Positions 14,935 through 33,566 of a stretch of 64,000 nt of DNA are shown here, piece by piece. Both the position numbers and the translations under genes were made by a program. Origin of the DNA: a virus. Taxonomy: Duplodnaviria > Caudoviricetes. Under the pieces are notes generated by a model that saw only the letters and a program-made list of their open reading frames with translations, ran no database searches and was not told the DNA's origin. Numbering within the stretch: the stretch's first letter is position 1; the number at the start of each line of letters is the position of its first letter. The stretch lies in IMG/VR virus record IMGVR_UViG_3300032227_000976, positions 5,239 through 69,238 of that record; one strand, 5' to 3'.

Positions 14935-15408
14935 ATGACCGCGCTTTCCCGCCTCGCCGCCGAGGTCAGAAAGGACGAGTTCGGCTATCCGCCGAAGTCC
15001 CGTGTCCCTGAGGGTGTCATCGCTGGCGGGACGCTTGTCGGCGGTCTTGGCGCTTTGGGTGTGAACAACGCATTTCAACTGCCGAGGCGTTCAAGGGACG
15101 CGGTGGCGTATCACCAAAATAGGTTGGCCACTTCTAAGCCGAAGGCGGTAGCGGCGAAGGCTCGCGCTAAATCCACCAGCAGGCTCAGCCCGAAGAAGGG
15201 CATGTATGAGCGTGCGGCGATAGCGGCTCGTGCGGATGCGGTGAGGGACGTGAACAACCTTCGAGCGAACAAGCACATCATCCGGAATATGCGAGCGCAC
15301 CAGTTGCGTCAGGGGCTGTCCGGAGGCGGGGTGCTTGCTGCGGGTGCCGGTTTGGCAGCTCTGGGGTCGAGGATGCGCGGGAGGCGTGATGAGTATTCAG
15401 CAGCCTAG
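14935..15408 (+). CDS. Basic Ala/Gly-rich head-module protein with hydrophobic segments
   Basis: RBS GGAGG; GxxxG-rich segments; EVRK|D motif near the N-terminus. Confidence 0.75.
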   Translation: MTALSRLAAEVRKDEFGYPPKSRVPEGVIAGGTLVGGLGALGVNNAFQLPRRSRDAVAYHQNRLATSKPKAVAAKARAKSTSRLSPKKGMYERAAIAARADAVRDVNNLRANKHIIRNMRAHQLRQGLSGGGVLAAGAGLAALGSRMRGRRDEYSAA

Positions 15409-16057
15409 GTTTGGCAGCCCGAATGATTCGGGTAGGCGTGAGCGCGGCGCGGCGTATGCGGGGATGGGTACGGCGCTTGCTGGGGGCGGCGCGTACGCGT
15501 ATGGCCGTGGGCAGCGGCGCATGGGGATTGCGGCGCAGGATATTGGCGCTGAGCGGCATGCCGCTGGGCTTGCCGGGGCGAAGAAGATCATGGACGAGGC
15601 GCAACGTGGGTCAGCGACTGGCAAGGTTGATGGCCGATCAAAGGCTGGCAGGCAGTTGAAGAATTTCAAGGTCGAGGTGGAGGCTGGGCGCGACCAGTAC
15701 TGGTCTGGGAAGAAGATGGTGTCCCGGTCGAAGCCGTACCGTATCGGCGGTCTTGCGGCTCTCGCTGCGGGCGCTGGCCTGATGGGTGCTGGCATTATCG
15801 GTTCGGACCGCGCTCGGGCCCGTGGCTTGCGGCCCAAGAAGTCCACTGTCACAGACATCAATGAATACCGGGAGCGCGGCGCAAACGTGCAGGGCGGTCT
15901 GCTGCGTAATGCCGCGGGCGAGCGTAACGAAATCCCGGGCAGGAAGGTGCCAGCCAAGCAGCGGCAGTACTTGGTGGACCGCGGCTTGGTGAACCCGGAT
16001 GCGTCTGACAGGGAAGTTTTGGACGTACTGCGTCGGGAGCGCGCAAATGGCCGTTGA
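15389..16057 (+). CDS. Basic Ala/Gly-rich head-module protein with hydrophobic segments
   Basis: RBS GGAGG; AGMGTALAGGGAYAYG and IGGLAALAAGAGLMGAGII segments; overlaps the portal start. Confidence 0.75.
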   Translation: MSIQQPRFGSPNDSGRRERGAAYAGMGTALAGGGAYAYGRGQRRMGIAAQDIGAERHAAGLAGAKKIMDEAQRGSATGKVDGRSKAGRQLKNFKVEVEAGRDQYWSGKKMVSRSKPYRIGGLAALAAGAGLMGAGIIGSDRARARGLRPKKSTVTDINEYRERGANVQGGLLRNAAGERNEIPGRKVPAKQRQYLVDRGLVNPDASDREVLDVLRRERANGR

Positions 16058-17600
16058 CCCGAACTACGCGAATGTCGGGCAGAACATCGGCGCGTTGAAG
16101 ACCGTGGACGTGAACCCGGTTGATGAAGCGGCGATGGTTCAAAACGAGCGCCTGAGCCCGTTCATGGAATTGGGCACGACTGGTTTGAAGCGTGCCGCCG
16201 GGTACATCGATGAGGAGTTCCTGCCGCAGCTGCGGGGCCGCAAGTCGGTGCAGGTCTTCAAGGAGATGAGCGAGAACGACCCACTGGTGGGCGCGTTGCT
16301 GTTCTCTATCGACCGGCTGCTGCGCAACGTGGAGTGGACGGTGAAGCCGGGCGGGAAGACCGCCGAGGATGCCCGCGCCGCTGAGTTCGTCGAGCAGTGC
16401 ATGAGCGACATGTCGGAGCCGTGGAGCAACTTCATCGGTGAGGTTCTCACGATGCTTCCGTTCGGCTGGTCGTGGCATGAGGTGGTGTACAAGCGACGTG
16501 GCGGCCAGTGGAACCGCAATCCGAAGACGCGGAGCAAGTTCAGCGACAACTTGATCGGGTGGCGCAAGATGCCGATCCGGTCGCAGGAGACGCTGCTGCG
16601 CTGGGTGTTTGACGACTCTGGCGACACGAAAGCAATGGTGCAGTTGGCCCCGCCGTTCTACAAGACGACGGTTCTTCCGGTGGAGCGGAGCCTGCTGTTT
16701 CGGTACAAGTCGAACAAGGGGAACCCTGAGGGCATTTCGATGCTTCGGAACGCCTACCGGCCGTGGTACATGAAGAAGCGCCTTGAGGAGTTTGAGGCTG
16801 TCGGCGTGGAGCGTGATCTCGCTGGCTTACCGGTGGTGAAGGTTCCTGCGGAGATGCTGCGGGCGAAGCCGGGCACGGAGCAGGCGAAGGCGGTGGAGGC
16901 GTTCAAGCGGATGGTGAAGAGCGTCCGCAGGGATGAGCAGGAGGGCATCGTGTTCCCGATGGCCTACGACCAGGACACGAAGCAACCGCTGTATTCGTTT
17001 GAGCTGATGGGCGGCGGCGGGGGTAGACAGTTCAACACGGACGAGATCATCAAGCGGTATGAGGAGCGGATCCTCATGACGGTCCTTGCAGATTTCATCC
17101 TGGTGGGTCATCAGTCAGTGGGGTCGTACAGCCTGCACACGGATAAGACGGGCATTTTCCGCACGAGCCTGAACTCGATCGCAGAGTCGATCGCTGACGT
17201 ACTGAACCGCTATGCGCTGCCTCGTCTGTTCATGGTGAATGGTTGGAGGCCGGAGCATCTGCCGGAGATCGTTCCGACGGACGTTGATTCGCCGGATATC
17301 GCGCAGTTGGGCCAGTTCATGCAGGCGATGGCGGGCACTGGGGTGAGTTGGTTCCCGGATGGGGAGTTGGAGAACTTCGTGCGCGAGGCGGCCCGGCTGC
17401 CGAAACTGGACAAGGACCAAGTGGAGATCCGCCGCCAAATGCAGATGCGCAGCGATGCAACGGCGTTCGCAGACGCGAACACGGCGTACGTGCAGTCGGA
17501 GCAGGCGTCTGAGATGGCCGAGTCGGGGCAGTTGCCTCTTCCGGGCATGGAGGGCATGGATTCGCAGGGGAAGCCACAGCAACAGAAGGGTGCGCCGTGA
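16047..17600 (+). CDS. Portal protein (DUF935/Mu gp29-like)
   Basis: ELGTTGL...EEFLPQL.G; MLPFGWSWHEVVYK; GNPEGISMLRNAYRPW; GVERDLAGLP; GSYSL motifs. Confidence 0.9.
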   Translation: MAVDPNYANVGQNIGALKTVDVNPVDEAAMVQNERLSPFMELGTTGLKRAAGYIDEEFLPQLRGRKSVQVFKEMSENDPLVGALLFSIDRLLRNVEWTVKPGGKTAEDARAAEFVEQCMSDMSEPWSNFIGEVLTMLPFGWSWHEVVYKRRGGQWNRNPKTRSKFSDNLIGWRKMPIRSQETLLRWVFDDSGDTKAMVQLAPPFYKTTVLPVERSLLFRYKSNKGNPEGISMLRNAYRPWYMKKRLEEFEAVGVERDLAGLPVVKVPAEMLRAKPGTEQAKAVEAFKRMVKSVRRDEQEGIVFPMAYDQDTKQPLYSFELMGGGGGRQFNTDEIIKRYEERILMTVLADFILVGHQSVGSYSLHTDKTGIFRTSLNSIAESIADVLNRYALPRLFMVNGWRPEHLPEIVPTDVDSPDIAQLGQFMQAMAGTGVSWFPDGELENFVREAARLPKLDKDQVEIRRQMQMRSDATAFADANTAYVQSEQASEMAESGQLPLPGMEGMDSQGKPQQQKGAP

Positions 17601-17854
17601 TGCTTCAGGAGTTGGCACGTAGGTACGCGGTCGGCATTTGTGTGCTTGTCGCCGAGGGCAAAACGACCGATGCGGTTGAGGCGACGAAGGTGTTTGTCGC
17701 AGAGGCGATGGCGCTGGGGCATACACCGTTTGATGCGATGTTTGCCTTGTTTCAGACATCTGTTGGGTGCGCGGTGGCAGCGGGCGACTACATCCCGGGT
17801 GGTGCTGCTGAGTATTTCTCCGGGTGCGCGCTGGGTTTGGCGGTGCAGTCATGA
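17597..17854 (+). CDS. Hypothetical protein (85 aa)
   Basis: Coupled overlaps with the portal and the next gene. Confidence 0.65.
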   Translation: MMLQELARRYAVGICVLVAEGKTTDAVEATKVFVAEAMALGHTPFDAMFALFQTSVGCAVAAGDYIPGGAAEYFSGCALGLAVQS

Positions 17855-20800
17855 CGGTGTCGATTGATTCGTACGCAAATCCTCGGGAGGCCGAGGATCG
17901 CAGACGGGCGTTGAAGCACATCGCTGTGGGTGGCGTGATCACGGGTGGCGCTGCGGCAGCCGAGTATGGGCTGGATCGCCGGTTGAAGGCAAAGGGCGCG
18001 AAGGGCCCGTTTATTTCGGCAGTGAATCGCACGTTCAAGCCGAAGACGCATGGCCCTCATATTGCGGGACGCCTCGCGACCCGTTCACTGTCAGCGACTG
18101 GCTTGCCGGTTATGGCGTATGGGTTGTGGAATATCGCGAACCCGAAGGACGAGGTCGAGGACTTGGATTTCAATCGTCATGTGGTGCGCCCGGCGGTGGA
18201 TCACGTGACGTTGCGCGATCAGCGGAACAAGTTGAAGACGCTTCGCAAGTCGCTGACGCAGGGTGAGCAGGACTCGCTGGTGCGTCGTAAGGAGCGCGGC
18301 ACTCGGATCAGTCATGCGGCCGGCGGGCTTGGTGTGGCGGCGTTGGCGTTGCGTGCCCCGCAAGCAGCGAAGTTTGCGTTGAAGCGCTCTGAGCGGGCGT
18401 GGAAGTTACGCCCGGTGCTGCGTGCGGCTATGTCGGAGCCGAAGGCGACGGCGGCGTCGAACACTCTTGGTGTGGCGTCGATTGGCACGGGGTCGATCGG
18501 GTCGTTCAACTATGCGGCGCAGCAGAAGCTTGAGGCGAAGCAGGTGAAGAAGTCTTTGCCTGCTGCTTTTCGTGGCAAGACTTTGACCGAACTGAATAGT
18601 CGCGGTCCTGCCGGTGAGTACATGGCGGCTCGCAGGGCGGCAAACAATTACGGACGCGTGGCGGCTAGGTCGCTTCAGGACAGTTCGGTTCCGCTTGGGC
18701 TGGTGCAGTCAGGGATCGCAAGCGGCAGTGTTGCTCGTGTTCGCTCGCGCGCTCGGCTAACTCATCCCAAGCTGAAGCGGTCACGCGTCAAGAAGTCCCT
18801 GTATGACGGCATGGTGAAGGGCATCGGCCGGGTGCGCGTGGTGGAGCGTTCGAAGCCGGGGTACGTGACGGTGGTCGATTCTCGGGACACACGCCGGTTC
18901 ATGCCGGAGTCGCGGGTGACGCCTGTGCGCAAGCCGAGACCGGTTGAGGTTGATAAGCCGTCAGTGGCGCAAGGTGAGCAGTTGACGTTGTTCAAGTCTG
19001 ACCGGTTCCTTCGGGACTACGGCGACCGGATCAGTACGAAGGCGGAGTCGGGCTACAAGTACTTGAAGGACGGCCGCGACCAGCGCCGGGTCAACGCAGG
19101 GATTGGCGCTACGGTGTCGGGCTTGTCTGGGGCGATGGCGTATTCAGCGGCTCGTGGCCGTCGTTTCGGCTGGGCTGGCGGCCATGGCGCGCTCGCTGGC
19201 CTATCTGCTGTGAGCACAGTGAGAAGTGCCCGTGAGGCGGGCCGCTGGGATGCGCGGATGGGGAAGATAAAGGCGAAGGCGATGGAGCGTGCCGCTGCCG
19301 GTGAGTATGGCCGCGACCGAGTGGTGGTGAAGGCGGATGAGCGCAAGGGGGATGACAAGCGCGGTGCGTTCGCTGCTGGTGCCGGTTTGGGCGCTGCGGC
19401 GATCGCTGGTATTCCGCTGCCGATGCGTCTTCCTGTAAATAGGGAAGCATCAAGGGGGATCGCGGGCAGGCTGGATGGCGCTGACTCTGGTCGAGCCTCA
19501 GTGAGGGATGTGCGCGGCGTCGCGACGGGCGAGGGAACTCGCTGGGCTGCAAGCATTAACCAGGACCGTCTTGCGGCATCAATGGCTGACCGTCGTGAGG
19601 CTGGCAAGCCTGCGCAGGACCCGGGACGTCCCGTGCGTCTACGGCGTGCCCCTGACGGGAGCATGCGGGTCATCGATGGCCATCACCGGATTAAGGCGTT
19701 GATGGACTTGGGCGAGAAGGACGTGGATGTTCGGGTGGAGCATTCGGGCCGCTCGCATCGGACGTGGGTGCCGCTTGCTCAGCGGGCGAAGTATTTGAGG
19801 GATGTGAGCCGTGCCCGTGAGTTCACCGGCCAGCGTGACCTTGGGGAGATACGGGCGAATGCGGCCCGCCCGATCCCACGTGCGGCGCGGGTAGGGAACC
19901 GGTTGCGGTCGCGCGCTGAGCGTGGCGCGCTGGCGTTGCGCCGCCCGGCTGGTGTGGCCGGGCTTGCTGCGGCTGCCGGTGTGGCGACAGGCGGCGTGGT
20001 GGCGCATCGGATGGCGAACCGGAAGAAGGTGGAGAAGTCGTTCACTTATGACAGCAAGGGGCGTCCGAATGGTGCGATCCCGGTGTCGCAGATGTCGGTC
20101 GAGCAGCGCGGGTTGTTGCGGGAGCAGGCCGAACGGATGGCGCGTACCCGTAAGGAGAAGGGCGCAAAGTTCCCGGGATTGAAGCCGCTGGTGGAGCGTG
20201 GGGTTCGGGCGCAGCGTCCGGCGACGTCTCGTGCGGAGCAGTCGGCGAAGTATCGGGCGACACGTATTGAGCGCCGTCATGGGGAGGCTCTTGCGGAGAA
20301 TGCGTCCCGGTCTGCGAACGCGTTGAAGCGGCGCAGTCTGGTCGCACCAAGCCAGTTGGGTAAATGGGGCGCTGGGCTCGCACTTGCTGGTGGAGGCGCG
20401 GCGATGCTCGCTGCGCGCGGCAATGACAAGGAACGGGCCGGGGGCAAGGCTGGTGATGCGGTGATCGCCGCTGGGGCTGGTCTGGGGGCTCGGGAAGCGG
20501 TGATGGGTGCTGGTGGCTGGGCGACGAAGCGCAGCATTGAACGGTATCGGGAGCGCAAGCTGCGTAACCCTGAGGCGAAGGCCGCGTACAACCGGGACTG
20601 GAAGGCGTTCCAGGAGCGCGAGGGGTTCAAGCAGTTCGGGGTGAAGCATCCGGGGGACCGCATCGACATGACGAACCATGACACGCAGGTCCGGGTGGGC
20701 CGCCGGTATCCGACGTCTATCCCTGGTGGTCGCGCTGCTCGCGCACTGGCGTGGAAGAACTCCCGTCAGGTGTCGTGGGGCTCAAAGATTGGAGTCCCGA

Positions 20801-20967
20801 TTGCTGCCGCGTCGCTGGCACTGTCGAGTGGGCAACCCGTGGAAAAGGCCCTTATCCCAAGGTTGCCGAGATTGGGCAGCCGGATCGCACGCCCGTCGAT
20901 TCGCAGCAGCTACGTGGGCACAAGCGCCCGCGGCAGGAAGTTCACCGTTCGTGGAACGGTCAGGTAG
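17851..20967 (+). CDS. Large modular basic Ala/Gly-rich protein (about 1038 aa) containing a ParB/Srx-like domain
   Basis: Seven hydrophobic-x-K|(S/A) junctions, many GxxxG segments, and PVRL...RVIDGHHRIKAL..LG ParB-like motif. Confidence 0.85.
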   Translation: MTVSIDSYANPREAEDRRRALKHIAVGGVITGGAAAAEYGLDRRLKAKGAKGPFISAVNRTFKPKTHGPHIAGRLATRSLSATGLPVMAYGLWNIANPKDEVEDLDFNRHVVRPAVDHVTLRDQRNKLKTLRKSLTQGEQDSLVRRKERGTRISHAAGGLGVAALALRAPQAAKFALKRSERAWKLRPVLRAAMSEPKATAASNTLGVASIGTGSIGSFNYAAQQKLEAKQVKKSLPAAFRGKTLTELNSRGPAGEYMAARRAANNYGRVAARSLQDSSVPLGLVQSGIASGSVARVRSRARLTHPKLKRSRVKKSLYDGMVKGIGRVRVVERSKPGYVTVVDSRDTRRFMPESRVTPVRKPRPVEVDKPSVAQGEQLTLFKSDRFLRDYGDRISTKAESGYKYLKDGRDQRRVNAGIGATVSGLSGAMAYSAARGRRFGWAGGHGALAGLSAVSTVRSAREAGRWDARMGKIKAKAMERAAAGEYGRDRVVVKADERKGDDKRGAFAAGAGLGAAAIAGIPLPMRLPVNREASRGIAGRLDGADSGRASVRDVRGVATGEGTRWAASINQDRLAASMADRREAGKPAQDPGRPVRLRRAPDGSMRVIDGHHRIKALMDLGEKDVDVRVEHSGRSHRTWVPLAQRAKYLRDVSRAREFTGQRDLGEIRANAARPIPRAARVGNRLRSRAERGALALRRPAGVAGLAAAAGVATGGVVAHRMANRKKVEKSFTYDSKGRPNGAIPVSQMSVEQRGLLREQAERMARTRKEKGAKFPGLKPLVERGVRAQRPATSRAEQSAKYRATRIERRHGEALAENASRSANALKRRSLVAPSQLGKWGAGLALAGGGAAMLAARGNDKERAGGKAGDAVIAAGAGLGAREAVMGAGGWATKRSIERYRERKLRNPEAKAAYNRDWKAFQEREGFKQFGVKHPGDRIDMTNHDTQVRVGRRYPTSIPGGRAARALAWKNSRQVSWGSKIGVPIAAASLALSSGQPVEKALIPRLPRLGSRIARPSIRSSYVGTSARGRKFTVRGTVR

Positions 20968-20976
20968 GGAGACGAC

Positions 20977-23900
20977 ATGGCAGTGATGAGCGTGCTGGAG
21001 ACGATCACCAGGAACGATGAGGCGGCTGGCTGTTTCCTCATCGATACGGTCGTGTACGACTATCTGGCTGACGTCGCGAAAGCGCATGAGGATGACTTGC
21101 GTGAGGTGTACTCGCTGTGGTCGCTGGACCGTGTGCAGGTCGCGAAGCGAGCTCTGGGCCGCAGGTATGTGTCGGACATGGTGTCGGGGGAGTACCCGGG
21201 CGATGACGTGTTGGGGATGTCGGATTGGCTGTCTGGCATTGAGCGTTTCGTGTCTGCTGCTTCCGTGTCGAAGGCTTTCGAGTATTTCAACATTGATGGC
21301 AACCGGGTGCGCCGTGACGTGAACCGTGATTCGCGTGGCCAGTTCGCTCGTGGTGTGAACCAGAACAAGACGACGAAGTTGCGTGATGTGGCGGGCCAGC
21401 CGGATCGGATCAGCCCGACGTTGAAGGGGTATTTCGACGGGAACCTCGTGCCGCGCGATGGACTTGATCCTGATGAGTTGAAGGGCGCGGAGCGTCATCA
21501 GGGCCAGTGGGATCAGGTGAACCGGATCGTCTCGGGGTTTTCCCGTGATTTCAAGGGCTCGGAGAAGTCTGTTGATGTCTTGCTGACGGTGCAGGATTCG
21601 GAGTCGGGCGATATCCGCGAGGTCGGATTCCCGCTGTCTCGGTTCAACCGGAGGGACGGTGATTCTCCGGAGCATTCGCTTCCTGACTTGCGGGATTTGA
21701 AGCCGTTGACGAACGAGTCGATCATGTCGGTTCGGATTGAGCCGAATAGGAACGCGTCGGACGCGGACGTGGCGCGGTTGGTTTCGTACAACTCGTTGGG
21801 GTCTGTCGGCGGTCAGGCGTTGGCGTCGTTGGCGAACGCAGACCCGGCCCGGCTTGAGAACTTGCGTGATGCGCTGCGGATGCCGGGGTCTAGTGACGCT
21901 GCGCCGAAGCCAGGCTTGTCACGCCTGTTCGGTCTGCTTGGGTCTGGCGCGAAGGTGCTGGAGGAGGGCTTCGGCTCGAACAAGGTGACGCAGATGGCGC
22001 GGTTTGTGGGCGCTGTGGGGCCGCAGGCTGAGGAAGTTCTGAGCCCGTACGTGCGCCGCGCCGCGTACCGTTATCGCGGTACGGAGGTGAAGCCATCCAC
22101 GGCGTTGAACCCTGCGACTGCTGACCCGAATATTGAAGCCACGCAGCGGGAACGCGGCCTGACTGGTGATTCGCTTGCCCAGCAGGTGATTGCCGATAAC
22201 GCGAGCTTGTACTTGGCGACGACGTTGCCGAAGGATCCGATCCTCGCGCGCTTGTCGGAGAAGTCAGGGCAGGTGTTGCCGAGTCGCGGGGCGATCTTTG
22301 ACTCGCAGGGAAGGCCAGTGACGGAGGCTGTCGGGTTCACTGACGACCACTATCTGCCGTTCGATTTGAAGAACCTTGGGTCGTTGCGGGGTGGGCAGTA
22401 TGTGCGGACGCGGGTGACGGGTGGGCTGACTGGCGAGGACGTGTACGCGGCGGTGATGACGGGCGCGAGGAACGTGCAGGTGGTGAGCGAGTCCGGGGTG
22501 TTCACGCTGGAGTTCCAACCGGATTTCCGTGGTGCGCGTGCGAACTCGGACAAGGCGAGGTCGATGTATGACCGGTACTTGAAGATTCTTGATGCTGTCG
22601 ACAAGTCGGGCTTGTACTTGCAAGACCTGCCTCCGCAGAAGATCCGGGAGATCAACCGGATGGCGAGGGATCAAGCGAAATACGGTGGAGATGAGGATGC
22701 GATCCGCGAGGAGTTGACGCAGGCGGCGCGGGACGAGATGGATGATGTCAGTGACACGGAGTTGAAGTCTCTCGCGGCGCAGGCGTTCAAGATCGCCACG
22801 GGTAAGGAAGTCGATCCTGAGAATGCGCTGGCGGAGGGCGCTGCACTGCCGAGCCGTCAGCGTCGTGCGTTCAACGAGTCGTTGGAGGATGCCGAGGCGA
22901 TGGCCCGGTCGTCGAAGGTGAATCGGCTTCGCTTGAACGGTGAGGGCTATGCGACGGCGTTGAAGACGCTGGAGGCGCAGTTCCCGCAGTTCATCCGACG
23001 AACGGATCGCCGTGACTTGTCTGCGCTTGGCAAGGAGGCCGGCCGGGACATGCCAAAGACTCGCAGGCTGCAACAGGACCGTGGATACGTGTCTCCTGGG
23101 GGCTTGCGGGCCGACAAGGTGCGGAGCGGTTTCTACGCCAGTGGATCCATCAACCAGTCGCCTAAGTCTCAAAGTGCCAGAAGTGGTTCAACTCCCGCCA
23201 GCGTGGCTTCTTCGGCCTCTGAAGGCCAGTCTGCTGGAGCAACTGGGCAGGAAACGACCCCGAAGACTGGCGGGGAGACGGATTCACGCCCTGGAGCACC
23301 GGACCCGGCGACGGCACGCGGAGCCGAGCAGCGCTTCATCGCCCGGCAGAAGCAGTTCGATGCGACGTTTAAGAAGAAGGCCGCTGCACTTGGCGGTGAC
23401 CTGTCGCTCATCGTCTCCGACATCGACCCCGAAACCGCCGACTCGTACCAGACGAATGACTTTGAGTCGATGACGACGCCGCAGCGCCGGGCCATGTGGC
23501 TCATCGCGAATATTGAGGGCGATCGAACTGTTCAAGCGCTCACCGATCCGGGGACCCGGGAGGATGCGATCAGTGCGCTGACGACGCCGAAGGTCATCAA
23601 GGCGGCATTTACTCAGCTCATGAAAATCACCGAGGCGTCCGAAGGCGGGATGGTGGACATCGGTGGGGAGCAGATGAGCGTCGATGACGCCGTTGATGCG
23701 TTGTCTGCGCGTGCAGGCGAACTCGCGGAACTGTCCGCAATGGCAGAGCCGTTCGCTGCGTTCCCGACGGACCCGGCGAAGGCCGCATTCCACACTGGGC
23801 TATCTCCGATGAGGATTCCGGAGATCTCTTCCATTGGAAGCGTCGAACAGCTTGAGGCTTACGCTGCGAAGAACCCGGCTGTCGCTAGTGTGGCTGCGGC

Positions 23901-24327: not shown

Positions 24328-25211
24328 ACAAGGTAAAGGCGCGACTGAACAAACTGACTGGCATGGACTCGGTCGTCGCCCAGATCGACGATCTCATCAA
24401 CGACGTGCAACTTAACCGGGAACGTGAAGAGGCTGGTCTTCCTGTGTCTGATTCGGGACCGGCGAATCTCATCTTCTCCGGGCCTTCCGGGACGGGCAAG
24501 ACGACGATCGCGAACCTCATCGCCCCCTTGTACAACGCACTCGGTATCACGCCATCGTCGAAGATCGTCTCGGTGAACCCAGCCGACCTGTACGGATCGT
24601 TCCTCGGAGTGACGCAGGAAAAGGTCCAGCAGGCGTTCAAGAAAGCGAAGGGCGGTGTCCTGTTCATTGACGAGGCGTACGGCCTCGTTACTCAAGACGG
24701 CGGCAACCGCGACATGTACGGCTTGCAGGCGCTGGCAGTCATGGCATCGGAGATGACCAAGAACCCTGACACTGTCGTGATTCTCGCTGGATACGAGAAG
24801 GACCTGAAGGAGATGCTGTCGAACAATGAGGGCATGCCTCGCCGGTTCCAGCGGGTCATCAACTTCAAGGACTTCGACCAGGACGAACGGTTCGACATCC
24901 TGCTTGGCGTGCTCGATGAGGGCAAGTACAAGCTCGCATCCCCTGAACTCATGGATGCCCTTGAGGATTCGGTGTTGGACACAGGCGGCGGTAATGCCGG
25001 TGACGTGCAGAACCTCGCAGCCGAGATCCTTGCCGCGCAAAAGCAGCGCCTGTCCAGTGAGAAGCCGGCAGCAGACCGCAAGGCGCAACTCGCGACGATC
25101 ACGGCTGCGGACATCAAGGCCGGGTCAAAGCGGTACCGCGAGATGGGGTCAGCGACTAATCCGCTGCGGGGTGCGTTGGTGCCGACGAGCCGGAAGCGCA
25201 AGACCGCATGA
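24171..25211 (+). CDS. AAA+ ATPase of the CbbX/SpoVK/EccA family (likely expressed as the -1 frameshift C-terminus)
   Basis: ARLNKLTGMDSVVAQI; NLIFSGPSGTGKTTIA; DLYGSFLGVT; GGVLFIDEAYGL; VILAGYEK; NEGMPRRF; GNAGDVQN. Confidence 0.9.
   Translation, partial: SPKRWSGQQAAVEGGSRGEGSGPDGPTVDRSGGQGDEGPALRSEDGIDWPEVDKVKARLNKLTGMDSVVAQIDDLINDVQLNREREEAGLPVSDSGPANLIFSGPSGTGKTTIANLIAPLYNALGITPSSKIVSVNPADLYGSFLGVTQEKVQQAFKKAKGGVLFIDEAYGLVTQDGGNRDMYGLQALAVMASEMTKNPDTVVILAGYEKDLKEMLSNNEGMPRRFQRVINFKDFDQDERFDILLGVLDEGKYKLASPELMDALEDSVLDTGGGNAGDVQNLAAEILAAQKQRLSSEKPAADRKAQLATITAADIKAGSKRYREMGSATNPLRGALVPTSRKRKTA
24174..24203 (+). other. Predicted -1 programmed ribosomal frameshift signal (C CCA AAA + hairpin)
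   Basis: Heptamer 24174-24180 is in frame with the upstream ORF; spacer GATGG; stem AGCGGCC-AACA-GGCCGCT (24186-24203). The -1 frame opens after TGA 24168-24170 and runs into the ATPase. Confidence 0.8.
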
Positions 25212-27877
25212 AGCGCTGGTGGGACGACGCAGGTGAGTCACTTGGGATCCTTGATCGTGTCGACGATTCGGACGTAGTGCAGGGGGTGGGGACGGCGCTG
25301 CTTGGCTATCACGGCCTCGGAACTGGCGTCTTAAGGCCACTGGTGCAGGCGACGCTGGTGGATGAGCGTGCCGTGTGCGATGCGCTTGCCAGTATCGACC
25401 TGGTTCCGGTGGCGAAAGCTCTGGCTGAGGCAACCCGACCGGTGATGGGCGATGCGTCGGATAGGTATGGGGTGCTGCTTGCCCATGACATGCATGAGCG
25501 GGCGGTGGATTCGACGACTAGGTTTGTGAGGTCGTTGACGGCGACGGGGATGGATTGGCCGAGTGCGCTGTCGCGTGCAGCAGACATTCATGGGGTTCCA
25601 TCTGACCAGATGGGTGTCGCCGGGGAGCGTCTTCGAGCCCAGCGGCTTCCTGTCGCGGCGCAGCAGGATTGGGCGGACCGTGCACTGGTCGGGTATGCGG
25701 CGCATGTGGGCAAGCGTGAAGCCGATGGCGTGGTGTCGAAGTCCATCCGGATTCGCACAGATTCGTGGGATGAGCGCGATCACCCTCGGGACGATGACGG
25801 CCAGTTCACAGCAAAGACCCGCGCTTCCACCAGTGGGGGAGATGACGGCATCGGCAGTCTTCGGCGTGCTGGCAAGTCGAGGAAGGCCCGTCTGGAGAGC
25901 CGTAGGCGACGGATGTCACGCGGCAGCAGGACGTCTTCTTCGAATGGCGTGGTTTTCGCCGGGTCTTCGACGGGTGACGTGGCGTTCGCGGGGTCTGGTG
26001 GCGATGAAACGCCGGTGGGGGCTAGGAGCCGTCAGGTGTCTGTCCGTGAGCAGCAGCCGTCTGCGCGGGAGCGCATCGCCGACCGTAGACGGACACGGAT
26101 ACAGGACCGCAGGAGAGCCGCCCGCAGGGAACGCATCAATGCCTTGCTCACTTCGGAGCCGCCGGAGACGCCGGATTCTTTCTCCGGAGGGCTTGGTAAT
26201 CCGTTCCCGAACGAGCCACGCGACGGGAACGGAAAGTACTTTGGTCACCGCATGGTGCAGCGTAGAGACCTGTACATGCTCATTCCCGGCCATCTTGCGG
26301 AGGAGATCGCTAAAGATGGCGCGTTCAACGTCGGCCGAGTCGCTGAGACGCGCTGGCCGGGTGAGATGTCTGCGCTGACTGCCAAGGAACTGAAAGTGGA
26401 GATCGCCGAGCTCCAAGAGCGGGACAAGGCGATGCGCGCCGCAGGCGAGCACGTTCACAACCCGGTCGGATCACAGGTCATCATTCGGTTCGTTGGCAAA
26501 GAGATGGCGTGGGCACCCAATTCGTCCTCGCACAAGGATGACGAGTCGGAGATCGCTACCGGTGCGACATTCAAGGTTCTTAGGGATAACGCCGACCTGC
26601 ATAGCCCGGAATGGCTTGAGGTTAATGCGACGGATTTCACGTGGCGGGCTACCGCAGCGTCGCCGAGTAAGAAGTTCCGGTCGATGTCGGTGAAGTTAGA
26701 TAACCAGGACGAGTTCGCGTTCCAAGGCTCTGATAACGACGGCTACGGGGATGACGAAGATGACGACGACGAAACCCCGCCGCTGCCGTATGACACTCTC
26801 CACCTCTTCGGGAAGGAAGATGACTGGAATGAGAGCTTGCACCCCCGTGACACGGATGGGACGTTCCGCGCCAAGGGATCGGGACTGAACGGGGTGGAAT
26901 GGAACAGGGATGAGGCGTGGGCTGCGTACCGGAAGGCCCGTAATGAGCGTCTGGCTAAGCGGCGGAAGCGCTTGGCACGTCAAGTGAGGCAAGCACGCAA
27001 AGCATCTGACCGGGTGGGTGTGCAGTTCGCCGGGTCATCCGGTCTCGCTGACGTCGCGGATGCGAGAACGGATACAGCCATTTCTGGGGACCGTGTCACA
27101 CCTGCGCCGTCGCGCGCTCAAGGGAGCCGGGAGCGCATACGTCAGCGGATCAGGGATCGTCGCAGGGAGCGGATGCACGAGCGCCGCAAGGCGCTGCGCG
27201 ACACCGGGTATAAGGGAGACCCGGCGAATGACCTGACCGGCTTGAGTGCAGCGTTCCCTGCCGATGCGGATGCGGCATTCCTTCTGCGCGTCGGAGAGGA
27301 CGGCGGCACCGTTGATGACGAGAAACCTTTCAAAAAGATCATCAGCAGTTTGATCTCCCGGTCAATGCAAGGCAAGGAGTCAATTGCGATCCTTGATAAG
27401 GACCGTTCACCAGGCCGAGAACTGGTTGCGATGCCGGAGTACGAGTCACCGGTGCCGGTGTTTGACACCGCGAACGAGGCAGACGAGTTCGCAGTGCAGT
27501 ACATCTCCAGCATTTACGATGCGTGGGACTCTGACGAGAAACTGCCGAGGCGGCTGTCCGAGTTCATTCAAGAGTCTGAGCAGGCTGGCGTTCACGTGTT
27601 CTCGAAGGCGGTCCCGCACGACACTCTGAAAGGCAAGTGGGTGCCGATGATGTTTTGGAGCGCTCCTTCTTTTGAGGCGCAGCAGATCATCGTCGCGACG
27701 GACGCGCAATGGAAGCGAGCTGCGTTGGGTGAGATCCCGACGTTTGTCGCAAGCGATCCAGTGCCGATGTCTCAGATGCTTGCCGCGAATGGATATGGTG
27801 CAGAACGCATCGAAACAACGAATGATGACTTGGTGCAGGTAATTCGGATGGATTTCATGGACAATGTGAGGCATTAG
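25208..27877 (+). CDS. Large head-module protein (889 aa) with two tandem HPRD..G.F/Arg-rich modules
   Basis: WDERDHPRDDDGQF and WNESLHPRDTDGTF, each followed by Arg-rich and GV.FAGSS segments. Confidence 0.85.
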   Translation: MKRWWDDAGESLGILDRVDDSDVVQGVGTALLGYHGLGTGVLRPLVQATLVDERAVCDALASIDLVPVAKALAEATRPVMGDASDRYGVLLAHDMHERAVDSTTRFVRSLTATGMDWPSALSRAADIHGVPSDQMGVAGERLRAQRLPVAAQQDWADRALVGYAAHVGKREADGVVSKSIRIRTDSWDERDHPRDDDGQFTAKTRASTSGGDDGIGSLRRAGKSRKARLESRRRRMSRGSRTSSSNGVVFAGSSTGDVAFAGSGGDETPVGARSRQVSVREQQPSARERIADRRRTRIQDRRRAARRERINALLTSEPPETPDSFSGGLGNPFPNEPRDGNGKYFGHRMVQRRDLYMLIPGHLAEEIAKDGAFNVGRVAETRWPGEMSALTAKELKVEIAELQERDKAMRAAGEHVHNPVGSQVIIRFVGKEMAWAPNSSSHKDDESEIATGATFKVLRDNADLHSPEWLEVNATDFTWRATAASPSKKFRSMSVKLDNQDEFAFQGSDNDGYGDDEDDDDETPPLPYDTLHLFGKEDDWNESLHPRDTDGTFRAKGSGLNGVEWNRDEAWAAYRKARNERLAKRRKRLARQVRQARKASDRVGVQFAGSSGLADVADARTDTAISGDRVTPAPSRAQGSRERIRQRIRDRRRERMHERRKALRDTGYKGDPANDLTGLSAAFPADADAAFLLRVGEDGGTVDDEKPFKKIISSLISRSMQGKESIAILDKDRSPGRELVAMPEYESPVPVFDTANEADEFAVQYISSIYDAWDSDEKLPRRLSEFIQESEQAGVHVFSKAVPHDTLKGKWVPMMFWSAPSFEAQQIIVATDAQWKRAALGEIPTFVASDPVPMSQMLAANGYGAERIETTNDDLVQVIRMDFMDNVRH

Positions 27878-27885
27878 GAGGATTC

Positions 27886-28698: not shown

Positions 28699-28976
28699 TG
28701 CCGGTGATGCCGAATGCGAAGTCGCTGTCTGTGGGCCAGGTTGAGGCGCTCCCGATCCCTGAATGGGCACGGGTGCCGTTCTCGCTTCCTCGTGTGGTTG
28801 CGAACCCGCTGGACATGGCGGCAGGCAGCCGGATGACGGCGTTGAACACCAGGCGTGTGCTGGCGATTCCGACGTTGCCGTGGACTCAAGGTCGGGTTGC
28901 GCGCGCTGGTCTCGGGGTCGCGCAGGGCGCTGCGGCCACGTTTAACCCAATCGGATATGGACAGAGGTACTCATGA
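28695..28976 (+). CDS. Hypothetical protein (93 aa)
   Basis: Coupled overlaps on both sides. Confidence 0.6.
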   Translation: MMPVMPNAKSLSVGQVEALPIPEWARVPFSLPRVVANPLDMAAGSRMTALNTRRVLAIPTLPWTQGRVARAGLGVAQGAAATFNPIGYGQRYS

Positions 28977-29683
28977 TCGTGTCGAAGCGTCAGATGACTG
29001 ATGAGCAGCGCAGCCAGCGCACGCAGGCCCGCGTGGGCTTGGCGAGCAATGTGCTGGGGATCGCCGCTGGTGGGGCTGCCCTCGCAGGCGCGGCGAGGAA
29101 CCCGGCGCTGCGGAATCCGACTGCTCAGAATGCTGGTCCGGTTACTGGGAAGTTCGTGTGGCGTAATCGCACGTTAAATGGCCGTGGGAGGGCGCTTGTG
29201 CGGGCTGGGGCTGCCGGTGCGATCGGCTTGCAGTCGGCGAATCTTGTCGGTGATCTCGTGGCGAACAGGGTGTTGTCGCGTGAGGCGAAGAAGGGCGATT
29301 CAGTGAAGAAGAGCGTGGAGCAGTCGATCGTGAGCAAGTCCTCGCAGGCGCGGGTGACGGGCCGTGGCGTGAACATTGAGAAGTCGGAGAAGGCCGTCGA
29401 GAAGCGCTACTACGACCCGGAGATGGACCGTCAGCGCCGTCTTGGCATGTACGCGGGCGCTGGGCTCGGAGCCGGTGCCGGCCTGATCGCCATGGGTGCC
29501 AGCGGGGTGAAGCCGTCGTCACGTGAGGTTGAAGGGGGCCGGGTGGTGCGCGGCCTGTCGATGCCGAAGGGCAAGAAGGCTCGCGGAAAACTGGCGCTCC
29601 TCGCTGCGGGGCTCGCATCTACTGGTGGCGGCATCGCCGCATACAAGCATTCGAACAGCCGTGAGAACGATCCTTGGGACTGA
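28973..29683 (+). CDS. Basic Ala/Gly-rich modular head protein (236 aa)
   Basis: IVSK|R, VKK|S, IVSK|S, IEK|S and VEK|R motifs; four Gly/Ala hydrophobic segments. Confidence 0.8.
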   Translation: MIVSKRQMTDEQRSQRTQARVGLASNVLGIAAGGAALAGAARNPALRNPTAQNAGPVTGKFVWRNRTLNGRGRALVRAGAAGAIGLQSANLVGDLVANRVLSREAKKGDSVKKSVEQSIVSKSSQARVTGRGVNIEKSEKAVEKRYYDPEMDRQRRLGMYAGAGLGAGAGLIAMGASGVKPSSREVEGGRVVRGLSMPKGKKARGKLALLAAGLASTGGGIAAYKHSNSRENDPWD

Positions 29684-29704
29684 GTCCTAGTCGTTTCACT
29701 CGTT

Positions 29705-29731
29705 AAGGGGTCGCCTTCGGGCGGCCCTTTT
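29705..29731 (+). terminator. Rho-independent terminator
   Basis: AAGGGGTCGCC-TTCG-GGCGGCCCTTTT. Confidence 0.85.
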
Positions 29732-29841
29732 GCGTTGCTATGCATCGCTATGCATCAGAACGCCTTCAAGATCACAAATTGGTAACGAAAAATGCATCAA
29801 TGGTAAGGGTCTGAAGCATTGTGATACCCCATGATGGTCTC

Positions 29842-30753
29842 ATGGGACGAACCGTGAGCAAACTGATTGACCTCGACATTGATGAGGTATCCCTCGTCGA
29901 CCGAGCAGCAAATCAGCACTCACTGGTCGCGTTCTCCAAGAGCCTCCACGAGGGGGCTTCCAATCATCTGGAGGATTCCGTGAGTGCTGATATCTCAGTG
30001 TTCAACGATACCGGCGAGGAAGTGGACGCCAACGAACTTGAGCACGGTGACACCGTCTTTGACGCCGATGGAAACGAGTACGTGTTCGTTGAGGACGGCG
30101 AGGAAGACGAGGTAGGCAAGGCCGACCTCATGCGCACCGCACGCGTAATGGGACGCCGCAAGGGGCGTCAGGCCAAAGACATGTTCAACCGGATTCCGAC
30201 GGGCGCAAAGTACGGCGCTGCTGCGGGTGCAGGAGTTGGCGCTGGCATGGCCGCAGGGTCGTACAGCAAGTCGCTGTCAGAGGAAATCCTTGAGGACTTC
30301 TCCAAAGCCGTCACCGACCGCGACCGTGACTACGTCATCGCCAAGGCCATGGACGAGGTGTCGAAGGCACAGGAGATTGCCAAAGAGGCGATGCAGTGGG
30401 CTGAGTACGAGCATGACGCGCGCATGACTGAGGCGTTCATCTCGAAGGCTGCGGAGTACAACCTCCCGGTCGCGCCCGACGTTCTCGGACCGATCCTCAA
30501 GTCACTTGCCGAGGCCCTCACCGACGAGCAGCTCGACGTGCTTGACGAGATCTTCAACGCCGTCGGGGACACCCTCTACGACGAGATCGGCTACGTGGGC
30601 GGAGGCTCCAACAGCTCGGTCTTCGACCAGGTCGATGCGTTCGCTTCCGAGTTCGTCGGCAAGTCCGACCTCTCCCGCGAGCAGGCAACCACGCTCATGT
30701 TCGAGGCCAATCCTGCGGCCTACGACGCATACATCTCCGAGATGGGACGGTAA
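29842..30753 (+). CDS. Capsid scaffolding protein
   Basis: L.DLDIDEVSLVDRAAN N-terminus; acidic/helical body; position between protease and capsid genes. Confidence 0.75.
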   Translation: MGRTVSKLIDLDIDEVSLVDRAANQHSLVAFSKSLHEGASNHLEDSVSADISVFNDTGEEVDANELEHGDTVFDADGNEYVFVEDGEEDEVGKADLMRTARVMGRRKGRQAKDMFNRIPTGAKYGAAAGAGVGAGMAAGSYSKSLSEEILEDFSKAVTDRDRDYVIAKAMDEVSKAQEIAKEAMQWAEYEHDARMTEAFISKAAEYNLPVAPDVLGPILKSLAEALTDEQLDVLDEIFNAVGDTLYDEIGYVGGGSNSSVFDQVDAFASEFVGKSDLSREQATTLMFEANPAAYDAYISEMGR

Positions 30754-30758
30754 CAGCA

Positions 30759-31166
30759 ATGGCTTTTGAAGAGAACATTTATAGCGCCTCATTCGCGGCT
30801 GACGCGTCTCTTGCGAAGTACACGGGCGTTCCCGGCCAGCCGGGCTCGGCTGTCCCGAACAGCGGCTTCCAGTACCGCTTTGTGAAGGTCACCGGCAAGG
30901 CGCAGGTCGGTCTTGCCACTGACTCTGGTGACCGGCTTATCGGGGTCATGCAGTCGAAGCCCCAGGTCGTCGGCCAAGCAGCGACTATCGGAATCTGGGG
31001 CATCAGCCTCGTCGTCTCCGGTGGCGTTGTTTCAGCAGGCGACGAAATCACGACCGACGCTCAGGGTCAGGCCATCAAGTCACTGGACCCGGCGACATCC
31101 CGTGGTGTCGCAATCACCTCTTCATCGATCGCAGGCGAGCTCATCTCCGTCCTGCTCCAGTTTTAG
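30759..31166 (+). CDS. Capsid cement/decoration protein (DUF2190-like)
   Basis: YRFVKV...IGVMQSKP...GQAATI...G...V.AGDEITTDAQGQAI; immediately upstream of the MCP. Confidence 0.75.
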   Translation: MAFEENIYSASFAADASLAKYTGVPGQPGSAVPNSGFQYRFVKVTGKAQVGLATDSGDRLIGVMQSKPQVVGQAATIGIWGISLVVSGGVVSAGDEITTDAQGQAIKSLDPATSRGVAITSSSIAGELISVLLQF

Positions 31167-31186
31167 GAACAGGAAGGTAGAGACAA

Positions 31187-32167
31187 ATGCCTAGTCCCTC
31201 GCAATCCGATCTTCACGTAAACGTGCCGCTGACGAATGTCAGCATCGCGTACATGCAGTCGTCGGACGCATACATCGCGGACAAGATCTTTCCGAAGGTC
31301 CCCGTGAAGAAGCAGTCAGACTTGTACTGGAAGTACAGCAAGTCTGACTGGCGTCGTACCGATGTCGAACGCCGTGCTCCCTCGACTGAGTCGAAGGGTG
31401 TCGGCTGGAATATGGACACCGACCAGTACTTCGCGCACGTGTACGCCGTCCACAAGGATGTTGACGACCAGTTGCGGTCGAACGCGGACTCGAACTTCAA
31501 TTTGGACCGTGACGCGACGGAGTTCATCACGAACCAACTCCTGCTTAAGCGGGATATCGACTGGAACACGTCGTACTTCCAGCCGGGTATTTGGGCGAAG
31601 GACCAGACTGGCGGCACTGATTTCACCAAGTGGAGCGATGCTGGGTCCGATCCGATCGGAAATGTCGCGGACTGGATCCTTGAGTTCCGCAAGCTCACGG
31701 GCTTCGCCCCGAACAAGATGATCCTGGGTGCTGAGGTCATGAAGTCCCTCAAGCAGCACCCGGACATCATCGACCGCATCAAGTACACGCAGAAGGGCAT
31801 CGTCACAGAGGATCTCATCGCGACCCTCTTCAATGTCGATCAGCTTTTCACGTCGTACGCGACGGTCGCGTCTGGACCGCAGTTTGATGACGCCCGCACT
31901 CAGGACGCGGCGGCGACGTTCGACTTCATCAGCAACGCGAAGTCGGTCCTCCTCGCTTACGCCCCGGGCGCTCCGTCGCTCATGACCCCGTCTGCCGGGT
32001 ACACGTTCACGTGGAACGGCTACCTCGGCGGGAATGGCGAGGGCGTGAAGATCAAGCGGTTCCGCATGGAGCAGATTGCCTCTGACCGCGTGGAGGCGGA
32101 GATGACCTACGACATGAAGGTTGTTTCCAAGGATCTTGGTTCCTTCGCAAAAGAGGTCGTCGCCTGA
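31187..32167 (+). CDS. Major capsid protein (lambda gpE-like)
   Basis: PLTNVSIAY...IADKIFPKVPV.KQSD.YW.Y; PNKMILG...LKQHPDIIDRIKYT; size and position. Confidence 0.9.
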   Translation: MPSPSQSDLHVNVPLTNVSIAYMQSSDAYIADKIFPKVPVKKQSDLYWKYSKSDWRRTDVERRAPSTESKGVGWNMDTDQYFAHVYAVHKDVDDQLRSNADSNFNLDRDATEFITNQLLLKRDIDWNTSYFQPGIWAKDQTGGTDFTKWSDAGSDPIGNVADWILEFRKLTGFAPNKMILGAEVMKSLKQHPDIIDRIKYTQKGIVTEDLIATLFNVDQLFTSYATVASGPQFDDARTQDAAATFDFISNAKSVLLAYAPGAPSLMTPSAGYTFTWNGYLGGNGEGVKIKRFRMEQIASDRVEAEMTYDMKVVSKDLGSFAKEVVA

Positions 32168-32664: not shown

Positions 32665-32667
32665 CTG

Positions 32668-32883
32668 ATGTCTACTGAGGCGTTTGAGATGGTTCCCTCA
32701 GACCGGATTCGTCCTAGGGATGTCACGAAGAAGCGCCCTACTGGTCCCCGTTACGTGGCACGCAAGCCCATGGTGATCGGTGACAAGAAGATCAAGATCG
32801 GGGATTCGGTCCCTGAGGCCAGGAAGTGGCCGCGCGTTGAGGCGTGGGTCCGCAGCGGCTACATAGACATCGTGGAGGGCTAG
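32668..32883 (+). CDS. Small head-associated protein (71 aa)
   Basis: YVARKPM...GDSVP...SGYI pattern, similar to the N-terminal domain of the preceding gene. Confidence 0.65.
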   Translation: MSTEAFEMVPSDRIRPRDVTKKRPTGPRYVARKPMVIGDKKIKIGDSVPEARKWPRVEAWVRSGYIDIVEG

Positions 32884-32885
32884 TC

Positions 32886-33566
32886 ATGTTTGATGCTCGT
32901 GAGGTTGCTGTGTCGAAGACGGCGCTGGCTCGACGGATCGCTGCGGTGACCGATGAGGCGACGATGGCGGCGGCAACGCGGTCCGGTCGCAGGGCTGCAA
33001 CGGCTGCTGGTGATGACTCGGTTCAGGTGGCTCATGCTGGTCGCGGCGGAATGTCGTCGCGTAAGAAGGCGTTGATCGCTACTGGTGTGGCGGTTCCGGT
33101 TGTTGGTGGCGCACTCATCGCGACGCGGCGCAGTAATGGCGTGGATAAGGCCTTGAATGCTGGGCAACTGGCGGGTCATTTCTCGAACAAGATTGCTGGT
33201 ACGACGATTCGCCGTGGCGGGATGTTGAAGCCGAAGCGGGTCAAGGGGACTGGCGCGCTCATGCTCGATTCCCGGTCGTCTGCGGTCGCTGGCCGCATGG
33301 TGCGTCCTTCTGGTACTGCGCCGAAGGGCATGGTGGAGACACTTCCGGGGAGGCGTGCTGGTGGAGCGAATCGCGCGATCGCCTCGCAGGGGTACCGTGC
33401 GAATCTTGAGTCCATTGCGAGGACGGCACCTGCGAAACTTGAGGGGTTAAAGGCTCGGGGCCAGTTGGAGCGCTGGCATCAGGGTGCGCTGCGCGCTGAG
33501 CGTAAGCGAGTCGGCACGGAGCCGCGCCGGGTGGCGCTGCGTCCGAAGCGCGATATTTGGTCGTAG
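32886..33566 (+). CDS. Basic Ala/Gly-rich modular protein (226 aa)
   Basis: AVSK|T and GVDK|A motifs; ALIATGVAVPVVGGALIA segment. Confidence 0.7.
   Translation: MFDAREVAVSKTALARRIAAVTDEATMAAATRSGRRAATAAGDDSVQVAHAGRGGMSSRKKALIATGVAVPVVGGALIATRRSNGVDKALNAGQLAGHFSNKIAGTTIRRGGMLKPKRVKGTGALMLDSRSSAVAGRMVRPSGTAPKGMVETLPGRRAGGANRAIASQGYRANLESIARTAPAKLEGLKARGQLERWHQGALRAERKRVGTEPRRVALRPKRDIWS

Follow-up and report, generated by a model that had tools for sequence, protein, structure and literature searches.

The window examined here is a stretch of 64,000 nucleotides (nt) of an uncultured Caudoviricetes phage, corresponding to bases 5239-69238 of the complete 69,238-bp IMG/VR virus record IMGVR_UViG_3300032227_000976, which has direct terminal repeats. 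Several proteins of its head module carry a short motif of the form hydrophobic (I/V/L/F)-small (A/S/G)-Lys↓Ala/Ser. We consider it likely, with a probability of roughly 0.7, that the phage encodes its own enzyme for this motif, namely a prohead protease of the XkdF/S78 type that would recognize it and cut after the lysine (at the arrow). For the scaffold protein and the protease itself, this reading has a high likelihood. Processing of the large proteins encoded in the same module is a more doubtful matter, for which we would put the odds slightly below even. The statistics and the conservation of the motif, as well as the family and the fold of the protease, were computed in the present study; cleavage itself and the location of the large proteins in the capsid are what we infer from these sequences.

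The lysine motif is in excess in the scaffold and the protease

Strict copies of the motif were counted as [VIFLY]-x-K-[AS], and the expected numbers were obtained from composition-preserving shuffles within each protein. The same pattern with Arg replacing Lys served as a control. The original prediction, made from the letters of the window, had held that about 30 such motifs are concentrated in head-module proteins and mark these as polyproteins to be cut by the protease. All the sites that it had listed are present, and additional ones were found in the scaffold (ILKS), in a protein of 1116 amino acids (aa) (VDKS, VIKA) and in an 889-aa protein (YRKA, FSKA); the five sites given for a 236-aa protein came down to three strict ones. 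The frequency of the motif indeed exceeds the expectation from composition, with 36 strict motifs against an expected 14.9 in the 17 open reading frames of the head module (2.4-fold, z 5.6) and 41 against 26 in the rest of the genome (1.6-fold, z 3). The concentration in the head module was also borne out by Fisher tests of head versus rest (p=0.003 per residue, p=0.034 per Lys). It is, however, uneven: the scaffold holds nine strict motifs where 0.74 are expected (12-fold) and the protease four where 0.68 are expected (5.9-fold), and once these two proteins are left out the head module no longer differs from the rest (p=0.21 per residue, p=0.58 per Lys).

The three large proteins of 1038, 1116 and 889 aa together contain 16 motifs versus 7.0 expected (2.3-fold), and comparison with the genome background of about 1.5-fold gave a Fisher p-value of 0.12. 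The portal, the ATPase, the cement protein, the major capsid protein and two small proteins, when pooled, contain 3 motifs versus 4.0 (0.75-fold). None of these is in the portal (1.0 expected) and two are in the major capsid protein (1.06 expected), where they are probably structural. The Arg control was at or near chance in every group, its maximum being 1.6-fold in the tape measure protein. This helical protein has 11 copies of the Lys motif (1.9-fold), which we did not regard as meaningful because its Arg control is raised too. Taken by itself, the window thus supports a motif excess in the scaffold and the protease, and for the remaining proteins it gives no more than a hint.

These counts bear on the alternative view that the motif, instead of being a protease signal, simply arises where amphipathic helices or coiled coils are rich in Ala and Lys. 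The 1.5-fold excess in non-head proteins and the two raised values for the tape measure speak for such an origin, as do several scaffold sites that lie within long predicted helices. The homologues of the scaffold, described below, speak against it.

Sites in the scaffold family

About 140 IMG/VR loci were retrieved with capsid and portal queries, the capsid identities of which range from 96% down to 37%, and the scaffold family obtained comprises 34 distinct homologues with 28-93% identity. Together they contain 244 motifs versus 26.3 expected, which is an observed-to-expected ratio of 9.2 compared to 0.46 for the Arg control. As many as 47% of the lysines in this family lie in the motif pattern, versus 2% for Arg, 5% for Glu and 7% for Asp. 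When all [class]-x-[residue]-[class] patterns were scanned, this motif ranked first with a z-score of 35; since the homologues are not independent, z-scores for families overstate the significance, and the observed-to-expected ratios are therefore more reliable. The preferred residues are I, V, L or F at P3, A, S or G at P2, K at P1 and A or S at P1', often followed by L at P2'.

In the window scaffold the motif lysines are K40, K100, K150, K162, K175, K182, K209, K227 and K281 (nt 29932-30666). K40, K162 and K281 are invariant in the family, which has 17 invariant columns in all. The other sites are displaced by a few residues between clades, while the count per protein remains steady at about 7-9, and such turnover of sites at a maintained number is typical of a selected short linear motif. 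According to the AlphaFold2 (AF2) model, the scaffold has a disordered N-terminus (aa 1-54) followed by a small beta unit, and a disordered basic insert (aa 93-147) with K100 and K150 at either side. K40, K100 and K150 are in disordered segments, two helices terminate exactly at K162 and K281, and four sites are located inside long predicted helices.

These findings argue against a helical by-product in several ways. The Arg version of the motif is rare in the scaffold family, the three invariant lysines are in disordered segments or at helix ends, and the sites shift between clades without a change in their number. Moreover, the helical scaffolds T4 gp22 and lambda Nu3 have no Lys signal, and T4 gives its known Glu signal instead. 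We therefore consider it improbable that the motif merely reflects helix composition, and prefer the protease reading.

At the C-terminus of the scaffold, AF2 predicts helices at residues 286-296 and 298-308, and an NPxAYDxYL tail is present in all homologues. This helix-turn-helix (Table 1) is probably the capsid-binding end. A variable, basic and Gly/Ala-rich insert is situated between motif sites both in the scaffold (aa 98-150, nt 30112-30273) and in the protease (aa 44-125, nt 28015-28260); not all homologues have these inserts, and both are disordered according to AF2. The scaffold gave no match in a tblastn search against 50,697 phage records, and no meaningful match in PDB sequence and profile searches.

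The same ratios were determined for the other head-module families (Arg control in brackets). The protease family, with 49 homologues, reached 2.6 (0.95), the 889-aa family 2.26 (1.02), the 236-aa family 2.25 (0.74) and the 1116-aa family 1.58 (0.97). The values were 1.36 (1.24) for the 1038-aa family, 1.35 (1.35) for the AAA ATPase and 0.87 (1.01) for the cement protein. For the portal, the ratio was 0.62 (1.25), with 40 motifs versus 65 expected across 61 homologues, the relatedness of which was left uncorrected. A possible reason for the depletion is that the portal, being enclosed in the procapsid together with the protease, has to escape being cut.

Cultured phages and proteases of known specificity

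An excess of the motif was also observed in the scaffold-position proteins of five cultured phages whose head modules are related to that of the window, even though these proteins show no detectable sequence similarity to the window scaffold. Roseobacter phage RDJL6 has 7 motifs versus 1.35 expected, gp54 of Microbacterium phage ValentiniPuff 9 versus 1.19, the XkdF-scaffold fusion of Bacillus phage B83 13 versus 1.59, Stenotrophomonas phage DLP_5 9 versus 1.99 and Rhizobium phage RHph_TM3_3_9 11 versus 1.93.

Phages with known systems were used as controls. In T4 gp22, hydrophobic-x-E-[AS] occurs 9 times versus 2.57 expected and [LIV]xE 20 times versus 10.3, with no Lys signal, and the motif-density test also recovered the Glu rule of T4 in gp21 and gp68. 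Lambda Nu3 gave no signal. The Lys motif is present 3 times versus 0.47 expected in the delta domain of HK97, and 4 times versus 0.65 in that of T5 pb8. We take the T5 delta domain to be 159 residues long, in which case its end would read HLK159↓A. The lysine rule for T5 rests on the motif count together with the published statement that Lys is the residue after which both S78 proteases, gp4 and pb11, cut (PMC13517437). In HK97, the cut has been mapped at K103↓S104 (PMC10275583), where the sequence reads FNK↓S.

These comparisons are also relevant for the idea that the lysine motif is a docking or binding element, be it for the capsid interior, the portal or DNA, or the site of a host protease. 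The link between the motif and the XkdF domain is indirect, and the basic character of many of the carrier proteins would suit DNA binding. However, the motif tracks the protease family across hosts ranging from Bacillus to Rhizobium, Roseobacter and Microbacterium, and it matches the experimentally known HK97 site (PMC10275583). In addition, the motif is most dense in the scaffold, an acidic protein that does not bind DNA. We thus regard docking or host cleavage as very improbable. That an XkdF-type protease cuts after Lys and clears the scaffold, as originally predicted, appears to be well supported by comparison, considering the 9-fold excess over 34 scaffolds, the involvement of Lys but not Arg, the turnover of sites and the five cultured phages.

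The protease and an apparently split S78 fold

The protease contains an XkdF (Peptidase_S78_2) domain at aa 139-263 (nt 28300-28674), which matches Pfam PF14550 with 77.0 bits (cut-off 24) over profile positions 4-124 of 126. No other peptidase domain was found. In the AF2 model, helices (aa 1-40) and a disordered basic stretch (aa 42-129) precede the folded domain (aa 130-261). The best structural match of this domain, as determined with VIA-align, was T4 gp21 (5jbl_A; Z 7.8, root-mean-square deviation 4.1, 115 residues aligned); the next match had a Z of 5.0, and the varicella-zoster virus protease (1vzv) a Z of 4.5. Foldseek found nothing significant for the model in the PDB, and sequence and profile searches of the PDB gave no meaningful match. 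With moderate confidence, as the best Z is just under 8, the model suggests an assemblin-like fold as in herpesviruses and T4 gp21. Among 30 homologues H195 is invariant and S256, within GFSIHG, is at least 90% conserved; by analogy to H65 and S114 of HK97, these two residues would form the catalytic pair.

Candidate cuts in the protease are LCK22↓S, VVK46↓M and VGK124↓A (nt 28249-28260), the last of which is followed by an acidic run. A Lys site precedes the XkdF domain in 17 of 17 aligned homologues, despite their diverged flanks. The site that the original prediction had placed just before the catalytic domain, FSK↓T, falls instead within the first beta-hairpin of the fold, where K142 is invariant. 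It was therefore rejected as the cut that removes the pro-domain, and VGK124↓A is a better candidate.

The protease gene ends 11 aa past the Ser motif GFSIHG (nt 28660-28698). The strand that follows the Ser in gp4 and pb11 (E-[IV]-S-x-V..P.N, with a Lys-Ser pair 18 residues past the Glu) is found instead at the start of the scaffold gene, which lies two genes further downstream. Indeed, residues 4-38 of the scaffold homologues match positions 127-161 of the 165 positions of Pfam Peptidase_S78 (best E-value 5e-4, 8 of 31 members), and the matches of HK97 gp4 and T5 pb11 to this profile run up to K159/S160 and K166/S167, respectively. A distance of 18 residues from Glu to Lys is shared by the window scaffold, HK97 gp4 (E141-K159), T5 pb11 and the scaffolds of DLP_5, RHph, RDJL6 and ValentiniPuff. 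In Bacillus phage B83, the S78-like strand is at the N-terminus of a protease-scaffold fusion. As so little of the XkdF gene is left beyond the Ser motif, the protease and scaffold genes appear to encode one part each of the S78 fold, and K40 is located at the conserved Lys-Ser junction with which the profile closes in gp4 and pb11. The strand may complete the enzyme or may merely tether it. The N-terminus of the protease was rejected as a source of the missing strand, because AF2 predicts helices there.

Among characterized systems, gp4 of HK97 and pb11 of T5 are of the same protease clan, cut after Lys and act with a motif-dense scaffolding part, and they have in common with the window the E-[IV]-S-x-V..P.N strand with Lys-Ser 18 residues on. 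The window phage differs from them in that its scaffold is a separate protein rather than a delta domain of the major capsid protein, in that its protease is a shorter XkdF (S78_2) enzyme with the last strand encoded at the start of the scaffold gene, and in that several large accessory proteins carry the same sites. B83 gp09 and the XkdF fusion of PBSX share the XkdF domain, the S78-like strand and the Lys site with the window. B83 also has an LTK↓A-DD site just before the XkdF domain and the above-mentioned motif-dense scaffold part. In B83 all parts are in one chain, whereas in the window the protease and the scaffold are separate, with two genes (93 and 236 aa) inserted between them.

Large and basic accessory proteins as possible substrates

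In the 1038-aa protein, the motif lysines are at positions 133, 234, 315, 382, 494, 729 and 999. Every fragment between these sites is basic, and many segments are Gly/Ala-rich and moderately hydrophobic. Blocks of this protein (q12-236, q134-231, q380-495, q521-729 and q724-970) recur in relatives in different orders and subsets, and 53% of the internal block ends are within 5 aa of a motif lysine, compared to 7% for random positions and 10% for non-motif lysines. When the block ends were clustered, a site was found at 5 of the 13 boundaries, among them the four with the most block ends (P=1.7e-3), and on the side of the relatives a strict site was found at 23 of 85 joints versus 6.8 expected.

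The other two large proteins follow a different pattern. The 889-aa protein has a conserved N-terminal domain (aa 1-175), which is followed by VSK178↓S (nt 25733-25744) and two HPR boxes (HPRxxxGxF) at aa 192-200 (nt 25781-25807) and aa 545-553 (nt 26840-26866), the second of which comes after FGK536↓E. Over 21 homologues, K178, R194, G198 and F200 are invariant, homology is confined to the first approximately 200 residues, and every HPR box has a hydrophobic-x-K 6-16 aa upstream. In the 1116-aa protein, VSK99↓A (nt 21265-21276) precedes a degenerate RDxxGxF box (nt 21322-21345; RDxxGRF in the family). K99, R117 and F123 are at least 90% conserved among 30 homologues, and G121 is invariant. 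A second site, LSK1078↓A (nt 24202-24213), lies 38 aa from the C-terminus, and LSKA1076 is present in 9 of 9 full-length homologues. The remaining listed sites of the two proteins lack conservation, and the idea that sites mark block ends in them was rejected, as only 2% of the ends in the 1116-aa protein and 0% in the 889-aa protein are near a site. The conservation of HPRDxxGxF boxes with an upstream hydrophobic-x-K over 20-30 diverged homologues is an observation of its own; the box could be an address or docking peptide at a new N-terminus. The core of the 1116-aa protein (aa 357-540) recurs with high conservation in about 60 contigs of uncultured viruses and represents a dark but widespread head-module family.

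Judged by these sequences, the 1038-aa protein appears to be the only convincing polyprotein, and the conserved sites of the 889-aa and 1116-aa proteins would fit the removal of N-terminal parts rather than polyprotein processing. The proposal that the sites fall at module boundaries and release cargo from polyproteins can thus be retained for the shuffled, site-delimited modules of the 1038-aa protein, where it has statistical support. Single conserved sites of the protease, the scaffold and the 889-aa and 1116-aa proteins (K178, K99 and LSK1078↓A) likewise agree with a position at module boundaries, unlike most of the other listed sites.

A narrower interpretation is that Lys cuts occur in the scaffold and the protease only, and that the three large proteins remain intact or outside the capsid, their motifs being due to chance or structure. 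The Fisher test without scaffold and protease (p=0.58 per Lys), the block ends of the 1116-aa and 889-aa proteins, the low ratio for the 1038-aa family and the absence of Pfam, PHROG or PDB annotation for the large proteins all favour this interpretation. Conversely, K178 and K99 are invariant or nearly so and each is paired with an HPR box, in the 1038-aa protein all four of the block boundaries with the most members are at sites, relatives join these modules to the prohead protease, and the genes are positioned between the portal and the protease. We therefore think that a restriction to scaffold and protease is unlikely, though by no means far-fetched. Under our preferred reading of a protease signal, the scaffold and the N-terminal extension of the protease are best seen as the main putative substrates, with limited conserved cuts in the accessory proteins.

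It should be noted that several observations weigh against this reading. Beyond the scaffold and the protease, the enrichment is inseparable from the genome background of about 1.5-fold, and the 1038-aa family barely exceeds its own Arg control. In relatives, K↓R, K↓K or K↓G is frequent at the joints of this protein. The family z-scores are inflated by relatedness, four scaffold sites fall within long helices of the AF2 model, and the conservation of K40 could reflect a role in the fold rather than a cut site. No enrichment was seen in haloarchaeal HSTV-1 (2 versus 0.64) despite its XkdF protease, and a literature search on the cleavage specificity of XkdF-type proteases found no paper.

Relation to the capsid interior and to multi-substrate proteases

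In the 236-aa protein, K113, K122 and K137 are clustered between its two halves. The N-terminal module of this protein is fused in front of the XkdF domain in three relatives (L025, L115 and L120), and basic modules resembling those of the 1038-aa and 236-aa proteins are fused to both sides of the XkdF domain in L111, L120, L025 and L115, as exemplified by a 781-aa protein of L120. A 236-aa-like basic module and a ParB-like module are found on either side of XkdF in one chain. The fusions link these modules to the protease and, by extension, would place them in the procapsid interior, where the fragments may serve as capsid cargo. ParBc_2 gave a weak match in a window protein (E 0.1) and ParB_N a match in one homologue (E 0.004). 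Searches of Pfam and PHROGs with the large proteins, the small basic ones and the families of both found no informative domain. In the PDB, neither sequence nor profile searches gave a meaningful match for the large proteins, tblastn of the 1116-aa and 1038-aa proteins against the 50,697 phage records found no match, and the 236-aa protein matched only unnamed viral clusters in the ESM Atlas.

Proteases such as T4 gp21 (S77), phiKZ gp175 and SPN3US gp245 (S80) provide a precedent, since a single enzyme there both breaks down the scaffold and processes numerous proteins of the head interior, guided by a short motif of three residues; what is removed is often an N-terminal targeting part. These enzymes cut after Glu, belong to myoviruses or giant phages and are proven by proteomics, whereas the window phage would have Lys at P1, has a 69-kb genome and, with its large tape measure gene, is probably long-tailed. 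An N-terminal part ending at a conserved site, as in the internal proteins of T4 and the inner body of phiKZ, is predicted for the 889-aa protein at K178 and for the 1116-aa protein at K99. The window system would thus combine a Lys-specific maturation of the HK97/T5 type with a T4-like trimming of multiple substrates.

Another parallel is given by the phage-type polyvalent proteins (Iyer 2017, PMC5512222), which are also large multi-module late or head proteins with a shuffled module order and a ParB-like module, and which have been proposed to be packaged and then processed into units (PMC5512222). Unlike these, the window proteins showed no MuF or portal anchor and no zincin (MPTase); hhalign detected no similarity of the 1116-aa and 889-aa families to the MuF protein of RDJL6 (probability <1%). 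Furthermore, the window modules are mostly basic and Gly/Ala-rich without known domains, and their proposed processing is by the prohead protease at Lys.

If the individual parts are joined, three kinds of action of the protease can be envisaged. Inside the procapsid, the protease would free its catalytic domain from the N-terminal extension near K124. The scaffold would be chopped at about nine sites, including K40 just after the S78-like strand and K281, where a cut would detach the probable capsid-binding helix-turn-helix, and could then leave. The 889-aa protein would be trimmed at K178 and ahead of its second HPR box, the 1116-aa protein at K99 and K1078, and the very basic 1038-aa protein would be cut at its module joints.

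A wider version of this scheme, which we put forward tentatively and consider rather unlikely as a whole, is a capsid-internal cargo system that is driven by the split S78 protease, with Lys-specific release in the procapsid and proteolysis that is licensed by assembly. Its content would be basic Gly/Ala-rich membrane-like and ParB-like modules shuffled between carriers, namely the 1038-aa protein, the N-terminal extension of the protease, the scaffold insert and the 236-aa protein, with the HPR-box proteins travelling along. Licensing would imply that the protease is complete, or tethered, only on binding the S78-like strand of the scaffold.

Genome setting of the head module

The structural genes of the window are on the + strand from about 4.3 to 48 kb, and the coordinates of the head-module features are compiled in Table 1. 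The protease gene is within the head module, with portal and major capsid genes on either side. The genes for the 1038-, 1116- and 889-aa proteins are all situated between the portal and the protease, and the acidic gene product that we regard as the scaffold is encoded between the protease and the capsid gene, which is the scaffold position. A gene for a 2116-aa tape measure protein is also encoded, and the phage is therefore probably long-tailed. Its nearest cultured capsid relatives, with about 40% identity, are phages of Arthrobacter, Microbacterium, Roseobacter, Rhizobium and Pseudomonas. The AAA+ ATPase gene occupies an unusual spot inside the head module, flanked by the 1116- and 889-aa genes, and this arrangement is kept in dozens of related loci.

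Table 1. Positions of head-module genes and scaffold elements in the window.
Feature	Position (nt)	Strand	Remarks
Portal protein, Mu-type	15999..17600	+	Pfam PF06074, phrog_113
1038-aa protein, basic module mosaic	17851..20967	+	Net charge about +116; homology blocks
1116-aa protein	20977..24327	+	VSK99↓A and RDxxGxF box, LSK1078↓A conserved
AAA+ ATPase	24363..25211	+	PF00004 plus AAA_lid_6
889-aa protein	25208..27877	+	Invariant VSK178↓S; two HPR boxes
Prohead serine protease, XkdF-type, 270 aa	27886..28698	+	Pfam PF14550
236-aa basic protein (+23), Gly/Ala-rich hydrophobic segments	28973..29683	+	
Scaffold protein, 310 aa, acidic, helical	29821..30753	+	Scaffold position, motif density
Scaffold N-terminal S78-like strand, aa 15-41	29863..29943	+	Ends FSK40↓S
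Scaffold C-terminal helix-turn-helix, aa 282-310	30664..30750	+	Directly after VGK281↓S
Phage_cement_2 protein, weak match	30759..31166		
Major capsid protein, lambda gpE-like, without delta domain	31187..32167	+	phrog_1005, E 3e-85

Implications

The motif-density test, validated on T4, HK97 and T5, represents a cheap readout of prohead protease specificity that requires a genome only. In the window phage, K40, K124, K162, K178 and K281 provide handles on the function of the basic internal modules and of the HPR-box proteins. If the proposed specificity is true, one sequence rule would predict the mature ends of head proteins in a large and mostly uncultured group of phages with XkdF proteases. 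The protease-programmed loading and trimming of internal head proteins would then extend from T4, P1 and the giant phages to an ordinary-sized phage of 69 kb.

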